Both the position numbers and the translations under genes were made by a program. From the sequence record MZ234035.1: a stretch of 64,000 bases of DNA; one strand, given 5' to 3'. A model generated the notes under the pieces. It was not told the origin of the DNA and made no database searches. It saw only the letters and a program-made list of their open reading frames with translations. This DNA comes from Escherichia phage vB_EcoM-G3F7. Below, piece by piece: positions 3,999 through 59,055 of the stretch (the first letter of the stretch is position 1; every line of letters begins with the position of its first letter).

Positions 3999-4662
3999 AC
4001 AAAAATTTTATAGAACATATATCGTAAAAGTTAGGACGCCGAAAGGCGTCTTTTGGTACGCTGGGAAACATGAATCATTTATTGTAAATCCATATGATGA
4101 TAAATATCCGGGGTCAGGCAAAATACTATGGAACATATATCGTAAGTATGGTTTTAATTATAAAATACGTTGGTCAAAATGCCATGGTTCTAGAGAAAAA
4201 TCATATGAAGTTGAACGCGAGCTAATATCTGCATTAAAACGTAAACACCCAGATACTTGCATTAATATTTCTCCTGGTGGTCAGGGTGGAGAAGGAAGAA
4301 AATGGACTGAGCAACAACGATTAGAACATAAACTTAGATTAAACAATCCTGAAACAAAAACTCGGATGAAGAATTCACAACGTATAGCCCAAAATAGAGC
4401 AGAACGAAAAGCTCGGCAATCTGAAGTAATGAAAAAGTTTTATTCGAATGGCGGAAATAAAAAGATTTCAGAAGGAACTTCAAGGGCGCAAAGAAAAGCG
4501 CCGCATTGGCATGAACCGCTTAAAAGCGAAATACATGAGTTATGGGTTTCTTTAGGTAAACCAGCAACAGGCCCGGTTGTAAAGGCGCTTAAAGGAAAAT
4601 ATGATGTAACAAGTTCAGCTCTTAAGAATTTAATTTACTTATTCAGAAAAGAAGATGTATAA
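3973..4662 (+). mobile_element. Free-standing GIY-YIG homing endonuclease (SegF-like position between 56 and soc)
   Basis: 229-aa ORF with GIY-YIG-like motifs (TYIVKV...WYAGKH; NISPGGQGGEGRKW); overlaps 3' end of gene 56; alternative ATG at 3988. Confidence 0.6.
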
Positions 4663-4665
4663 ATA
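4658..4665 (+). promoter_or_regulatory. T4 late promoter TATAAATA upstream of soc
   Basis: Exact TATAAATA overlapping the stop of the upstream ORF, about 30 nt before soc ATG. Confidence 0.55.
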
Positions 4666-4695
4666 ATCATGTAATTTAAATAAAAGGAGAATTAC

Positions 4696-4941
4696 ATGGC
4701 TAGTACTCGCGGTTATGTTAATATTAAAACATTTGAGCAGAAATTAGATGGAAATAAGAAAATTGAAGGAAAGGAAATTTCTGTAGCTTTCCCTCTTTAT
4801 TCTGACGTTCACAAAATTTCTGGTGCTCATTACCAGACGTTCCCTTCAGAAAAAGCAGCATATACTACTGTATATGAAGAAAATCAGCGTACTGAATGGA
4901 TTGCTGCAAACGAAGATTTGTGGAAAGTAACTGGTGGTTAA
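4696..4941 (+). CDS. soc: Small outer capsid protein Soc
   Basis: 81-codon ORF MASTRGYVNIKTFEQKLDGNKKIEGKEISVAFPLYSDVHKISGAHYQTFPSEKAAY...; matches T4 Soc as recalled. Confidence 0.93.
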   Translation: MASTRGYVNIKTFEQKLDGNKKIEGKEISVAFPLYSDVHKISGAHYQTFPSEKAAYTTVYEENQRTEWIAANEDLWKVTGG

Positions 4942-7085: not shown

Positions 7086-7115
7086 GTTTACTTTCCTTTC
7101 TAACGATGATATGAT
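7086..7115 (+). promoter_or_regulatory. T4-type early promoter upstream of modB
   Basis: GTTTAC 7086-7091, 18-nt spacer, TATGAT at 7110-7115. Confidence 0.4.
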
Positions 7116-7141
7116 AGCTTCTGAAGTATACGGAGGCTATC

Positions 7142-7765
7142 ATGATTATTAATCTTGCAGATGTTGAACAGTTATCTATAAAAGCTGAAAGCGTTGATTT
7201 TCAATATGATATGTATAAAAAGGTCTGTGAAAAATTTACTGACTTTGAGCAGTCTGTTCTTTGGCAATGTATGGAAGCTAAAAAGAATGAAGAGCTTCAT
7301 CGGCAATTGAATAAAATCATTAAAAAGCATTTAACTAAATCGCCTTATCAGTTATATCGTGGTATATCAAAATCGACAAAAGAACTTATTAAAGATTTAC
7401 AAGTTGGAGAAGTGTTTTCAACGAACAGGGTAGATTCATTTACTACTAGTTTGCATACAGCGTGTTCTTTTTCTTATGCTGAATATTTTACTAAAATAAT
7501 ACTTCGTTTAAAAACTAATAAAGCTTTTAATTATTCTGACCATATCAGCGATATTATACTTTCTTCTCCTAATACTGAGTTTAAGTACACGTATGAAGAT
7601 ACTGATGGGCTAGATTCAGAGCGTACTGATAACTTAATGATGATTGTGCGTGAACAAGAATGGATGATTCCAATTGGAAAGTATAGAATAACTTCTATTT
7701 CAAAAGAAAAATTACACGATTCATTTGGAACATTTAAAGTTTATGATATTGAGGTAGTTGAATGA
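7142..7765 (+). CDS. modB: ADP-ribosyltransferase ModB
   Basis: 207 aa; ART-like motifs (YRG, S-T-x, EQEWMIP); paralog of the next ORF; size and synteny as in T4. Confidence 0.7.
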   Translation: MIINLADVEQLSIKAESVDFQYDMYKKVCEKFTDFEQSVLWQCMEAKKNEELHRQLNKIIKKHLTKSPYQLYRGISKSTKELIKDLQVGEVFSTNRVDSFTTSLHTACSFSYAEYFTKIILRLKTNKAFNYSDHISDIILSSPNTEFKYTYEDTDGLDSERTDNLMMIVREQEWMIPIGKYRITSISKEKLHDSFGTFKVYDIEVVE

Positions 7766-12284: not shown

Positions 12285-12314
12285 GTTTACTTCCTCGGTT
12301 AGTTGTGGTATTAT
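12285..12314 (+). promoter_or_regulatory. T4-type early promoter
   Basis: GTTTAC 12285-12290, 18-nt spacer, TATTAT 12309-12314. Confidence 0.4.
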
Positions 12315-12341
12315 AACACCATAGCTACTGAGGATAATAAA

Positions 12342-12842
12342 ATGAAAATTTATCGTGTTGAATCATCGTTTAGTATTCTTGATTATGAAGATGCTATAAC
12401 AATACGTCGAAATCTTTGTGTTCAAATAACGCCGTACAGGAGTATAATAGATTCATGGAGCGAAGAGTGGCTATTACACGTAGGTTATGACAGACCTAAT
12501 TTTATGCATCATAGCGATAATAATAAAAGAATTCCTTTACCACACGAAGATAAACTATTAGTTAAAAACGCTAATATAGTAATTAATACTAAGTTCAAGA
12601 AAGATTATGTTGGAGTAGAATATCATATTCCAGGATGGTTTATAGCTCTTTATCATTTTGCTTTCGCTAGCGAATATGATATGATGAGATGGTTCACACG
12701 AGAAGAGCGTGAAGAATTAGCTTCGAAAGGATTTTATCTTGCTGTATACGAAGTACCAGATGACCAAGTTATCGTTGGCGGGCATCAAGTAATGTTCCGT
12801 AAATCCCATGCTGAACTTGTAGATTTTATTGAAATGAGATAA
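12342..12842 (+). CDS. Hypothetical protein (166 aa)
   Basis: Track ORF 12303..12842 begins with TTG inside the promoter; ATG 12342 follows GAGGA. Confidence 0.5.
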   Translation: MKIYRVESSFSILDYEDAITIRRNLCVQITPYRSIIDSWSEEWLLHVGYDRPNFMHHSDNNKRIPLPHEDKLLVKNANIVINTKFKKDYVGVEYHIPGWFIALYHFAFASEYDMMRWFTREEREELASKGFYLAVYEVPDDQVIVGGHQVMFRKSHAELVDFIEMR

Positions 12843-13390: not shown

Positions 13391-13393
13391 TAG

Positions 13394-13422
13394 TTTACAA
13401 ACTCTTGGGACCAGAGTATAAT
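13394..13422 (+). promoter_or_regulatory. T4-type early promoter
   Basis: GTTTAC 13394-13399, 17-nt spacer, TATAAT 13417-13422. Confidence 0.5.
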
Positions 13423-13466
13423 GGTCCTGTGGAGTATAAAATCTTTTTAACAAGTGAGAGATAACT

Positions 13467-43084: not shown

Positions 43085-43450
43085 ATGTATATCGGTAAAA
43101 AGTATGAACTTGTTCCAAGACTTATTGATACATTTATTAATTATCGCCCACGTTCTAATTCAGCAATAGTTAAAATTATTCAAGAAAATGGCGGATGGTT
43201 TGAAGTTAAAGAAGCTTTCTTTGTTGATGGATTTAGAGTAATAAAACACATTGAATGCGCAAATGGAAAGCATTTTTACTTTAACGTTTGTGAAGACGAA
43301 TTTCATTGTTTTCGTGAGTATAAAGAACCGACTTCTGAAGAAGATGAAGTCAAAGACAAAGTTTCTGGCGTAACAAAAATTCACTGCATTGTTGACGAAA
43401 ACAATGTAGATGAAATCATTGAACTTTTGCGAAAAACTTTCAAAAAGTAG
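43085..43450 (+). CDS. Hypothetical protein (121 aa)
   Basis: Track ORF, ATG after GAGGAAAA. Confidence 0.5.
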   Translation: MYIGKKYELVPRLIDTFINYRPRSNSAIVKIIQENGGWFEVKEAFFVDGFRVIKHIECANGKHFYFNVCEDEFHCFREYKEPTSEEDEVKDKVSGVTKIHCIVDENNVDEIIELLRKTFKK

Positions 43451-43588
43451 TTTACAGAAGGGTAGTAGTGTGATACTATTACCCTATCAAAACTAATGGA
43501 GAAAAGAAAATGTTCGCACCTTATATTATGGCAGCAGTTATGTTGGTCTGTTTATATCTTTTGATTAAAGCTTGCTAAGGAGAATAAA

Positions 43589-48791: not shown

Positions 48792-49961
48792 ATGAGCACA
48801 GTTTTTAATACAAATCCAGTTGATGTTTTAAAAGAACCTATGTTCTTCGGTTCAGGTCTTGGTATTGCGCGTTATGATATTCAACGCCATAAAGTTTTTG
48901 AAGATTTGACTGAAAAGCAATTATCATTTTTCTGGCGTCCTGAAGAAGTAAACTTGATGATGGATGCTGCACAATTTAATAAACTTCCTCAGTATCAACA
49001 GAATATTTTTACTAATAACCTGAAGTATCAATCACTTTTGGATAGCATTCAGGGTCGCGCGCCATCTGCTGTACTTATGTCATTAATTTCAGACCCAAGC
49101 CTTGATACATGGGTTGCTACGTGGACTTTTAGTGAAACTATTCACAGCCGTTCATATACACATATCATGCGAAATCTTTATACTGATCCATCGAAGGTGT
49201 TTGATGAGATTGTATTAGATGAAGCTATTATGAAACGTGCTGAGTCCATTGGGCGATATTACGATGATGTCTTGGTTAAAACCCGTGAATGGGAAAACGC
49301 TAAAGAAGAATACGAAGGAATTTTGTCTGAAGGTTGGCGCAAAGATGAACTTGGTAAAGTCGTTGAATACGCCAAACGAGAGCTAATGAAATCTCTTTAC
49401 CTCTGTTTGCACGTTATTAATGCCTTAGAAGCTATTCGTTTTTATGTATCTTTCGCATGTACCTTTAACTTCCACAAGAATATGGAAATCATGGAAGGTA
49501 ATGCCAAGATTATGAAGTTCATTGCACGTGATGAACAGCTTCACCTTAAAGGCACCCAATATATTATTCGTCAGCTTCAATCCGGTACTGATGGTGATGA
49601 ATGGGTTAAAATTGCTCAAGAGTGTGAACAAGAAGCAGTTGATATTTTCATGGAAGTTAACCGCCAAGAAAAAGATTGGGCAGTTCATTTATTTAAAGAT
49701 GGCGATGTTCCTGGATTAAATACAAATAGCATGTGGAGCTTTATTGATTACTTAACTGTATCTCGTATGAAACAGTGCGGTCTTCCATGCCCAATTACCG
49801 ATGCTCCGGTTAAACATCCATATCCTTGGATTCGTGAATATCTTAATTCTGATAATGTTCAATCCGCGCCACAAGAAGTAGAACTGTCATCTTACCTTGT
49901 TGCACAGATTGATAATGATGTTGATGATAAAGTTATGATGAGTTTTAAAAAATACTTTTAA
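48792..49961 (+). CDS. nrdB: Ribonucleotide reductase small subunit NrdB, uninterrupted (no intron)
   Basis: 389 aa continuous ORF; T4 NrdB-like. Confidence 0.93.
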   Translation: MSTVFNTNPVDVLKEPMFFGSGLGIARYDIQRHKVFEDLTEKQLSFFWRPEEVNLMMDAAQFNKLPQYQQNIFTNNLKYQSLLDSIQGRAPSAVLMSLISDPSLDTWVATWTFSETIHSRSYTHIMRNLYTDPSKVFDEIVLDEAIMKRAESIGRYYDDVLVKTREWENAKEEYEGILSEGWRKDELGKVVEYAKRELMKSLYLCLHVINALEAIRFYVSFACTFNFHKNMEIMEGNAKIMKFIARDEQLHLKGTQYIIRQLQSGTDGDEWVKIAQECEQEAVDIFMEVNRQEKDWAVHLFKDGDVPGLNTNSMWSFIDYLTVSRMKQCGLPCPITDAPVKHPYPWIREYLNSDNVQSAPQEVELSSYLVAQIDNDVDDKVMMSFKKYF

Positions 49962-49988: not shown

Positions 49989-51576
<1,588 letters not shown>

Positions 51577-51579
51577 GCT

Positions 51580-51611
51580 GTTTACAAGTCCCTCGTGTTG
51601 TGTTATAGTAG
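51580..51611 (+). promoter_or_regulatory. T4-type early promoter upstream of alc
   Basis: GTTTAC 51580-51585, spacer, TGTTATAGT -10. Confidence 0.45.
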
Positions 51612-51640
51612 TCTTACTGACATAACATGAGGACTTTATG

Positions 51641-52144
51641 ATGGATTTACAACTTATTACTACTGAAATGGTCGTTGAAGCATACGGTGATACTACAGAT
51701 GGGATTTCTGTATTCAAAGGAAATCGTCGAGTTGGATATATCACCGATCTTAAGAAAGATTTAGCTAAGCAAGTCAAGCGGAAAACGACCATTAAAGAAT
51801 ATCGAAATCGTCGTCTTGAGCAAGCCCGTGATATGCTTCCTGATGCGGTTGAGGAGATGAAAGTCTTTTTAGAAAATCAGCTTGCGAAATATGATTGTGA
51901 TGTGTTCATTAATCAGACTCAACCTAATGTTCATATTAACAACTGTAAATGCTATATCATCGTTAATCCTTTAACGGGAAAACACCGCCTTGGGATTAGT
52001 AATCCAAATCGTAGTGCATCAGATATGGCAGAAGATGTTGCGGCATGCTTTAAAATTTCTAAATCTCCGGCGGAACATCATATTTTAATTAACGGTCTTT
52101 CTCAAGACGATATTATAGAGGTTATTAAAACTTTATGCAATTAA
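51641..52144 (+). CDS. alc: Alc, inhibitor of host transcription elongation
   Basis: Track ORF 51638..52144 starts ATGATG; second ATG gives 167 aa, the size I recall for T4 Alc; synteny. Confidence 0.75.
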   Translation: MDLQLITTEMVVEAYGDTTDGISVFKGNRRVGYITDLKKDLAKQVKRKTTIKEYRNRRLEQARDMLPDAVEEMKVFLENQLAKYDCDVFINQTQPNVHINNCKCYIIVNPLTGKHRLGISNPNRSASDMAEDVAACFKISKSPAEHHILINGLSQDDIIEVIKTLCN

Positions 52145-54904: not shown

Positions 54905-54934
54905 GTTTACTTTACGGTAGAGTTGTGATATTAT
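54905..54934 (+). promoter_or_regulatory. T4-type early promoter with -10 inside an inverted repeat
   Basis: GTTTAC 54905-54910, 18-nt spacer, TATTAT 54929-54934. Confidence 0.45.
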
Positions 54935-54943
54935 AGCTCTACC
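54916..54943. repeat. 7-bp inverted repeat bracketing the -10 element
   Basis: GGTAGAG (54916-54922) and CTCTACC (54937-54943). Confidence 0.45.
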
Positions 54944-54964
54944 AAAACAAATGAGGAAATTGAA

Positions 54965-58598: not shown

Positions 58599-58631
58599 GT
58601 TTACAGTATGGTTCCTTTGTGATAGTATTAT
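58599..58631 (+). promoter_or_regulatory. T4-type early promoter
   Basis: GTTTAC 58599-58604, spacer, TGATAGTATTAT -10 region. Confidence 0.45.
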
Positions 58632-58655
58632 CTTACACAAACAAAGGAGAATAAA

Positions 58656-58988
58656 ATGAAAACGATTAATCTGAACGCTACAGTTAAAACTAAATGCTTC
58701 AATGGTAAATATGATGAAACTATGTGGTTCTTAATGGCAGTTGAAGGTGATATCATTGAAGTAGAAACAACAGAAGGTATGGGAACAGATTTCACCTTTA
58801 CAATTCAAGTTCATAATTTCTTTACTGGTTGGATTTATGAATTGAATACAGTAATCGTTGGAAAAATTGAACAAAATGAATTAGGTGAATGGTATTATGT
58901 TACAGCTCGCCAACGTGCCGAACGCTTAATTGAGAAGATGAAAAAAGTTGGTAAACTTGACATGCAGCATTGGAAAGTAGTAAAATAA
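58656..58988 (+). CDS. Hypothetical protein (110 aa)
   Basis: Track ORF, ATG after AAGGAGA. Confidence 0.5.
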   Translation: MKTINLNATVKTKCFNGKYDETMWFLMAVEGDIIEVETTEGMGTDFTFTIQVHNFFTGWIYELNTVIVGKIEQNELGEWYYVTARQRAERLIEKMKKVGKLDMQHWKVVK

Positions 58989-58990
58989 TT

Positions 58991-59019
58991 GTTTACTTTG
59001 GTACAGGATATGATATTAT
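58991..59019 (+). promoter_or_regulatory. T4-type early promoter with -10 inside an inverted repeat
   Basis: GTTTAC 58991-58996, 17-nt spacer, TATTAT 59014-59019. Confidence 0.45.
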
Positions 59020-59030
59020 ATACCTGTACC
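59000..59030. repeat. 8-bp inverted repeat bracketing the -10 element
   Basis: GGTACAGG (59000-59007) and CCTGTACC (59023-59030). Confidence 0.45.
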
Positions 59031-59055
59031 GCAATTAAACATCTTGGAGAATAAA

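Follow-up and report, generated by a model that had tools for sequence, protein, structure and literature searches.

Alc is a main weapon of bacteriophage T4 against host transcription, and if the transcription units upstream of its gene read into alc, the shut-off of the alc promoter alone cannot explain why Alc is confined to the first minutes of infection. What, then, could set the translation of alc apart from that of its upstream neighbours? The locus considered here lies in a stretch of 64,000 nucleotides of Escherichia phage vB_EcoM-G3F7 (MZ234035.1), referred to below as the window. According to the T4 omics classes, which are coarse (onset is the point at which 10% of the maximum is exceeded; PMC9697503), alc is an early RNA with an early protein, nrdA.1, nrdA, nrdB.1, nrdB and rnlA are early RNAs with late proteins, and denA is a middle RNA with a late protein (PMC9697503 supplementary tables). 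The same tables list lysozyme e, the textbook case of an occluded gene, as an early RNA with a late protein. The change of protein class across the 64-nt spacer between rnlA and alc agrees with translational uncoupling, and an early promoter alone could give the same pattern.

The rnlA-alc spacer and its hairpin

The gene order in T4 (AF158101) is nrdB, denA, rnlA, alc, pseT.3, pseT.2, pseT.1 and pseT, and the rnlA-alc spacer of T4 and that of the window do not differ at any position. Escherichia phage slur03 matches the region under study at 100% identity, and about 500 Tequatrovirus genomes match it at 95-99%. The gene upstream of alc, whose transcripts would read into it, is rnlA (RNA ligase 1), with a coding sequence at 50452-51576 on the plus strand (ORF 50416-51576; 136340-137464 in the T4 annotation); its start was taken as the ATG that agrees with the 374-codon T4 annotation. 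The rnlA stop codon TAA occupies 51574-51576, and the first paired base of the hairpin described below lies 9 nt further on. On the same strand, alc extends over 51641-52144 (167 codons and a stop in the ORF list; 135772-136275 in the T4 annotation). Two adjacent in-frame ATG codons are found at 51638-51643, and annotators differ on which of them starts alc. The ATG annotated in T4 corresponds to 51641 and the other lies at 51638; since the Shine-Dalgarno (SD) spacing is 7 nt for 51641 and 4 nt for 51638, the former is favoured as the start.

Several elements upstream bear on the transcripts that could enter alc. Among the middle promoters mapped in T4, PnrdA, PnrdB and PI-TevIII are located upstream of alc and point in the same direction (PMC2988021). 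Just 5' of rnlA, a MotA-box-like TGCTTC (50400-50405) stands 14 nt before TACTAT (50420-50425); judged by their sequence, these two elements may constitute a middle promoter, a candidate that is missing from the mapped T4 list in PMC2988021. Searched as a possible feed for rnlA, the late promoter motif TATAAATA was found nowhere on the plus strand between 41612 and 57573, including 51500-51640, and a terminator scan found no terminator-like site between rnlA and alc. At 50481-50510, early in the rnlA coding sequence, the plus strand carries a hairpin that resembles a terminator and has a T-run (GCTGTGTAAGGATTCGCAGC GTAAGTTTTT). Further upstream, nrdB (48792-49961) is one uninterrupted 389-codon ORF in this phage, and the group I intron with I-TevIII of T4 nrdB (a joined coding sequence in AF158101) is absent from it.

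An earlier note on this DNA had proposed that AAGTCCCTC at 51586-51594 pairs with GAGGACTT at 51629-51636, a segment that includes the GAGGA SD of alc. This pairing is present at these positions, with C51592 bulged, but the helix of 8-9 bp described in the note forms only the base of a longer hairpin of about 22 bp, which spans 51586-51636. On the plus strand, the 5' arm at 51586-51604 (AAGUCC, the bulged C51592 and UCGUGUUGUGUU, in both the MFE and the centroid structures) pairs with the 3' arm at 51619-51636 (GACAUAACAUGA GGACUU) through 51586-91/51631-36 and 51593-604/51619-30. Folding places an apical element at 51607-51618, in which a 4-bp stem (51607-10/51615-18) closes a loop of 4 nt (51611-14). 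The SD of alc (GAGGA, 51629-51633, plus strand) lies wholly within the 3' arm, 7 nt before the ATG at 51641. The base of the stem is A-U rich and then reads UAUGAUGG, the hairpin was not flagged as an intrinsic terminator by the scan, and the T4-type tail that follows the stem, UUUAUGAU, is weakly terminator-like.

The free energy of the hairpin is -23.9 kcal/mol, compared with -8.4 +/- 2.3 kcal/mol for dinucleotide shuffles (z = -6.7), and none of 200 shuffles was as stable; the same helix dominates in contexts of 111 and 141 nt. The antisense strand reaches -14.6 kcal/mol, and the sense strand is thus better by 9 kcal/mol, because three pairs of the stem are G.U. The bulge and the G.U pairs also account for the outcome of an exact-seed repeat search of the region, which did not report the hairpin. 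No Rfam family matched either strand of 51300-51900 up to E = 1.

A promoter scan detected a sigma-70/T4-early-type promoter at the same place (TTTACA, a 17-nt spacer and TATAGT, with TG 5' of the -10 box), which has 10 of 12 matches. Its -35 element, GTTTAC(A) at 51580-51585 on the plus strand, lies directly 5' of the hairpin, with G51580 extending the box to GTTTACA. The extended -10 element at 51601-51609, also on the plus strand, comprises TGn (51601-51603) and TATAGT (51604-51609) and falls within the upper stem; in one Tequatrovirus variant the -10 sequence is TATAAT. T4 early promoters have been reviewed as UP/-35/TGn/-10 promoters (PMC2988021), and the alc promoter, TTTACA-17-TATAGT, fits the PST/T4 consensus TTTACW-N17-TAYWAT (PMC4122927) except for the G at -10 position 5. 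With the -10 box at 51604-51609, promoter geometry predicts a transcription start at A51616, 7 nt after the box and at the top of the 3' side. An early promoter inside the loop had been claimed, and in fact the -10 box and the predicted start are inside the hairpin, whereas the -35 box is located just 5' of it. The 5' arm occupies the promoter spacer and would therefore be missing from transcripts begun at this promoter; the 3' arm is common to read-through and promoter-proximal transcripts.

Leader length and predicted access to the ribosome-binding site

RNA that begins at 51616 has a leader of 25 nt and is predicted to be essentially unstructured (-1.8 kcal/mol), and the mean unpaired probability of the SD is 0.00 with a long leader versus 0.52 from the predicted start. 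The cost of opening the alc initiation region (-16 to +3) was calculated as 20.0-20.8 kcal/mol for leaders of 55-100 nt, 17.0 kcal/mol at 50 nt, 7.3 kcal/mol at 45 nt and 2.5-3.0 kcal/mol for leaders of 30 nt or less. The earlier note had suggested that the SD would be occluded in read-through RNA and left free in promoter transcripts, and had pointed to the folding of long versus short 5' leaders as a check. Both expectations are borne out in the models, with predicted opening costs of 20 kcal/mol (unpaired probability 0.00) and 2.9 kcal/mol (unpaired probability 0.52 in a leader that folds at -1.8 kcal/mol), respectively.

Among the 112 predicted genes scored, which come from a crude gene call over the whole window, alc ranks first for the long-minus-short difference in opening cost (16.6 kcal/mol; median 1.0). 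The window also contains soc, an accepted T4 case, which served as the positive control and gave 8.6-9.0 versus 2.6 kcal/mol in the same calculation; by this measure, the effect of leader length is about three times larger for alc. At soc (4658-4700), the late promoter TATAAATA at 4658-4665 is accompanied by a hairpin (CAUGUAAUU.../...AAUUACAUG) that sequesters the AUG at 4696.

We consider it probable, at about 0.65, that the alc ribosome-binding site is occluded in a manner dependent on leader length and that Alc is translated only from transcripts of its own early promoter. The intergenic region would then be a composite element, in which a T4 early promoter is set within an RNA hairpin whose 3' arm carries the alc SD. 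Transcripts from upstream (the nrdA/nrdB/denA/rnlA unit, with early and middle promoters) would carry both arms; the read-through RNA would fold once the 3' arm has been transcribed, burying the SD in the helix of about 22 bp and preventing independent 30S initiation on alc. Transcripts begun at 51616, which would be without the 5' arm, would present a free SD on the 25-nt leader. Alc, which terminates transcription on cytosine-containing DNA, would thus be made essentially only from its own immediate-early promoter, and the shut-off of early promoters would end its synthesis while transcription from upstream goes on. What the analysis shows is the structure with its stability and its preference for the sense strand, the match to a promoter, the difference in predicted accessibility, and conservation with covariation. 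The position of the start, read-through and its extent, the block of translation and the rationale, which would be a burst of Alc restricted to early infection, are inferred.

Similar elements are found elsewhere in the window. The long-minus-short difference is at least 11 kcal/mol in 4 of the 18 pairs of a predicted GTTTAC-type promoter and a gene, among them alc with 16.8 kcal/mol, and a difference of 10 kcal/mol is reached by one of the 95 other genes. The gene at 12342, which encodes 166 aa (phrog_1106), has the second largest difference in the window (14.9 kcal/mol; 17.8 for the long leader versus 3.0 from the predicted start). Its upstream region at 12285-12345 has the same architecture as that of alc: an early-type promoter, GTTTAC-N18-TATTAT, lies inside a hairpin (-23.7 kcal/mol, z = -5.2) whose 5' arm (TTCCTCGGTTAG...) pairs with the SD, CTGAGGA. 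For the ModB-like RNA polymerase ADP-ribosyltransferase gene (207 aa, ATG at 7142), the difference is 14.5 kcal/mol (16.9 versus 2.4); here an early-type promoter contributes its -10 box and early transcribed region to a hairpin at 7086-7160 (-20.8 kcal/mol, z = -3.7), in which they pair with the SD and the AUG. The gene at 58656 (110 aa, phrog_1507) shows a difference of 11.0 kcal/mol (11.5 versus 0.5), and its early-type promoter at 58599-58660 is associated with a hairpin over the SD (UCCUUUGUG.../...CAAAGGAG, -12.1 kcal/mol). A covariance model built from alc orthologues also matches 12285 and 58599.

Early-type promoters with hairpins of another kind are located at 1152-1200 (before dmd), 13393-13435 (before motB), 43450-43500, 54905-54955 and 58991-59040, the last three lying before genes of unknown function. 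These five hairpins of 10-14 bp are centred on the -10 box and stop short of the SD; they resemble the promoter-early stem-loop (PeSL) cassettes discussed below and have no U-tracts.

More tentatively, the alc hairpin could belong to an unrecognised class in which T4-like early promoters embedded in hairpins act as translational insulators, their genes being translated only from transcripts of their own promoters; we regard such a class as possible, although doubtful. Its members would be selected immediate-early genes of host takeover, the candidates being alc, the gene for the ModB-like ADP-ribosyltransferase and the two window genes of unknown function.

Conservation and covariation among relatives

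A tblastn search with Alc returned 1137 phage records with a relative. From 18 annotated loci representing 15 genera and 51 IMG/VR loci, we obtained 53 distinct upstream regions, which form 30 sequence clusters. In 52 of the 53 regions, GTTTACA precedes the alc ATG by 57-61 nt (64-67 nt in Acinetobacter phages), a Vibrio phage being the exception. Across the loci examined in Tevenvirinae, Bragavirus, Aeromonas and Proteus phages, the order rnlA-alc-(spanin genes pseT.3/pseT.2) is kept.

The SD-occluding arrangement is present in 15-18 of the 30 clusters and in at least nine genera, with arms that differ and yet co-vary. The unpaired probability of the SD is 0.00-0.17 for the long RNA versus 0.43-0.83 from the start in 18 of the 30 clusters. 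In 15-16 clusters GTTTACA is followed directly by bases that complement the local SD region, and there the helix runs for 9-17 bp; the start of the 5' arm tracks the local variant of the SD (GGAGA, GAGGA, GAGAGG or GGGGA) in the same number of clusters. Such complementarity occurs in Tequatro-, Gelderland-, Jiaoda-, Karam-, Roskilde-, Braga-, Dhaka- and Winklervirus, and in Kanagawavirus CIP9. In two further lineages (L030 and L068), the 5' arm is placed downstream of the -10 box and upstream of the start site, and the SD is affected in the same way. The arm pairs of individual lineages include AAGTCC-CTCGTGTT with AACATGAGGACTT, TCTCCATTTGGTT with AACCAAATGGAGA, TCTCCTCAT with ATGAGGAGA, CCTCTCGTTTTT with AAAAACGAGAGG and ATCCCATTTTGTT with AACAAAATGGGGAT; complementarity is kept despite the difference in genus in TCTCCGTTT with AAACGGAGA, TCCTCGTCAG with CTGATGAGGA and ACCTCTCATTTT with AAAATGAGAGGT.

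Sequence-based MAFFT alignments of the promoter-to-ATG regions did not bring the 3' arms into structural register, and no structure was obtained from them with RNAalifold. Their place was taken by two tests, namely an alignment-free comparison of cognate with non-cognate arms and an analysis of an 11-sequence subset without gaps in the arms. Duplexes of cognate arms have a mean energy of -12.4 kcal/mol versus -7.2 kcal/mol for non-cognate arms, and none of 20000 permutations was as good. In the 11-sequence alignment, which was made from sequence only, 93.5% of the cells are paired versus 38-48% with slid partners; double changes occur at four pairs (13 cells), and the covariation score was reached by none of 500 shuffles. 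The covariance model (R1) realigned most of the orthologues, but its hits also included copies on the reverse strand and paralogous promoters, and because of the bulge it placed the T4-type sequence in the wrong register; its sole use was to locate similar elements in the window, and no pairs were counted from it.

Across all orthologue hairpins, 30 G.U pairs were counted versus four A.C 1x1 mismatches. Within Tequatrovirus, substitutions in the stem are confined to exchanges between G.U and A-U, and the remaining changes lie at the apex or strengthen the -10 box; the adjoining 230 nt of rnlA differ at 7-16 positions within this genus. The covariation and the G.U asymmetry together indicate a selected structure of the sense-strand RNA, and the absence of equally stable shuffles together with the co-varying arms excludes chance. 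The hairpin is real and strong, it exists at the RNA level, and it is maintained by compensatory change.

Not all relatives with the hairpin occlude the SD, and the arrangement proposed for alc holds for at least nine genera but not for every lineage. The hairpin ends before the SD in Mosigvirus (L003, L007 and L045), in Kanagawavirus PEi26 (L011 and L046), in the Acinetobacter phages and in two unassigned IMG/VR lineages (L059/L061 and L039/L057); in these SD-free lineages it is located in the spacer or around the -10 box. Such relatives suggest that the hairpin may be kept for another reason, or that occlusion was lost several times. The 3' flank is A-rich in most genera (AAACGAAAUG, AACAAAAUGA and ACAACAUGAA) and has no U-tract.

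Among the loci examined, only in the Acinetobacter phages, ZZ1 (L014, 1415-1470) and KARL-1 (L015, about 1416-1480), are rnlA and alc separated by a small additional ORF, and both phages carry a promoter hairpin without contact to the SD. In ZZ1 the hairpin is followed by TTTATTCTTTTT, which contains a T-run, and the two may form a plausible intrinsic terminator that overlaps the promoter. About two-thirds of the 30 clusters have only 5-10 nt between the rnlA stop codon and the first paired base. For many genera this stop is a TAG that overlaps the -35 box (TAGTTTACA; L009, L010 and L013, at about 1440-1446, and many IMG/VR loci), and at these loci the stop codon, promoter, hairpin, SD and ATG are all contained within 57-59 nt.

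Alternative explanations and known systems

Hairpins are known to couple translation in RNA phages such as MS2 (coat/lysis/replicase) and in many bacterial operons. In these systems the downstream SD is locked in a helix, the 5' strand of the helix is at the end of the upstream cistron, and the upstream ORF ends within the helix or overlaps it. Applied to alc, coupling would mean that ribosomes ending at the rnlA stop melt the base of the stem and expose the SD, which would make alc expression proportional to the translation of rnlA. The close spacing of stop and stem (9 nt in this phage, and 5-10 nt in about two-thirds of the clusters) is compatible with this, as are the overlap of the TAG stop with the G of GTTTAC in many genera and the fact that the base of the stem is exactly the segment that pairs with the SD. 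However, judging by ribosome footprints in general, a terminating ribosome with its stop codon 9 nt before the stem would open at most the first one or two pairs, and the freeing of the SD from a T4-type stem of about 22 bp seems improbable. The arrangement is also variable in lineages with gaps of 20-38 nt. The alc locus differs from MS2-type coupling in that the rnlA stop precedes the helix by 9 nt and in that the promoter inside the hairpin would supply a structure-free mRNA. Finally, RnlA is a late and Alc an early protein, contrary to tight coupling (PMC9697503), and we judge this explanation unlikely.

About equally improbable, in our estimate, is a hairpin kept for what it does to upstream RNA. 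PeSL cassettes of T4-like phages (Arbiol et al. 2010; Comeau et al. 2014; PMC2839356, PMC4122927) have been proposed to terminate upstream transcription and to promote recombination in plastic ORFan regions, and one such stem-loop cut downstream lacZ expression as strongly as rrnB T1 (PMC2839356; PMC4122927). The alc hairpin might likewise terminate or attenuate transcription from upstream, or protect the 3' end of the rnlA mRNA, in which case the SD would be overlapped only as a side effect of packing a promoter, a hairpin and a ribosome site into about 60 nt. Consistent with such a role, alc orthologues without SD occlusion retain the promoter hairpin, several other early promoters of the window have -10 hairpins that do not touch the SD, and a T-run follows the hairpin in Acinetobacter phage ZZ1, as does UUUAUGAU in the T4 type. 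Against it, the 3' flank in most genera is A-rich rather than a U-tract, and the 5' arm follows the local SD variant in 15-16 clusters. The locus is moreover syntenic in all Enterobacterales, Aeromonas and Proteus phages examined, and it is not a plastic ORFan region. A plain intrinsic terminator was rejected, given the missing scan flag, the A-U-rich stem base and the A-rich tails of the orthologues other than ZZ1-type Acinetobacter phages. An inverted repeat that straddles the -10 box of a strong promoter could also act as DNA, as a cruciform or a protein-binding palindrome that modulates the promoter, or could have arisen by chance, but both possibilities are very remote. A DNA palindrome was rejected on the 9 kcal/mol advantage of the sense RNA and the ratio of 30 G.U to four A.C, since no such asymmetry is expected of it, and a chance repeat conflicts with shuffles that never reach the same stability and with arms that co-vary. 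Cleavage of the SD by RegB was ruled out for this phage, whose SD is GAGGA and whose leader contains no GGAG.

If leader-dependent occlusion holds, the alc design may help to account for why, in the published classes, early RNAs go with late proteins in some cases and with early proteins in others. The conservation with covariation in at least nine genera, together with the recurrence at other early genes of the window, points to a concrete function for some promoter/stem-loop cassettes. Should the proposed class of insulators exist, PeSL stem-loops would gain a second function, which for some of them would be the primary one, and the shut-off of early proteins despite persisting early-region RNA would be explained. 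As an element of about 60 nt with a promoter, an insulator and a ribosome-binding site, the alc region is also a possible part for synthetic biology.

Like the PeSL cassettes, alc has a strong, intergenic sigma-70-like early promoter that is followed by an SD and an ATG. In RB49 and phi1, the PeSL stem-loop is mostly located between the -35 and -10 boxes or over the -10 box, and G-T pairs in the stems have been noted (PMC2839356), whereas the PST/T4 stem-loops are placed just upstream of the promoter (PMC4122927); hiding of the SD is not among the roles proposed for PeSL stem-loops. The alc hairpin, which extends from the spacer through the -10 box into the initial transcribed region, fits the description for RB49 and phi1 but not that for PST/T4. 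It differs from the PeSL cassettes in its conserved, syntenic locus, in the usual lack of a U-tract and in a stem that includes the SD; the setting typical of these cassettes, a hyperplastic region with variable ORFans and breakpoints of indels or recombination, is not found at alc.

Sequestered ribosome sites in transcripts initiated upstream have been described for e, soc, 49, I-TevI, I-TevII, I-TevIII, Aeh1 mobE and segB, a list in which alc does not appear (PMC3014915). In our literature search, no description of the alc hairpin, no alc start site and no T4 ribosome profiling were found, although older T4 literature may mention the hairpin. The homing endonuclease genes (I-TevI, I-TevII, I-TevIII, Aeh1 mobE and T4 segB) resemble alc in that their hairpins occlude the ribosome-binding site in upstream-initiated transcripts, as demonstrated experimentally for I-TevI and Aeh1 mobE (PMC3014915). 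However, occlusion there limits selfish endonucleases (and, for I-TevI, also protects intron folding) and the internal promoters are late, whereas alc serves host shutoff, is conserved and has an early internal promoter.

The closest parallel is with e and soc of T4, in which the SD and/or the AUG lies in the 3' arm, transcripts from the internal promoter are without the 5' arm, and the long transcripts are translationally silent (PMC3014915). The likeness to these genes drawn in the earlier note thus applies to the logic of occlusion (PMC3014915), but the temporal logic is reversed. The internal promoter of e and soc is late (TATAAATA) and delays translation until late in infection, whereas the early, sigma-70-type promoter of alc would confine its translation to the immediate-early period; the alc helix is also stronger than that of soc (opening costs of about 20 versus about 9 kcal/mol). 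Since the late internal promoter of all established members is missing at alc, the alc element is best described as a variant of the mechanism of e, soc, 49 and I-TevI. With an early promoter placed within the hairpin, the same RNA trick would serve both temporal directions, late-only translation of e and soc and early-only translation of alc.
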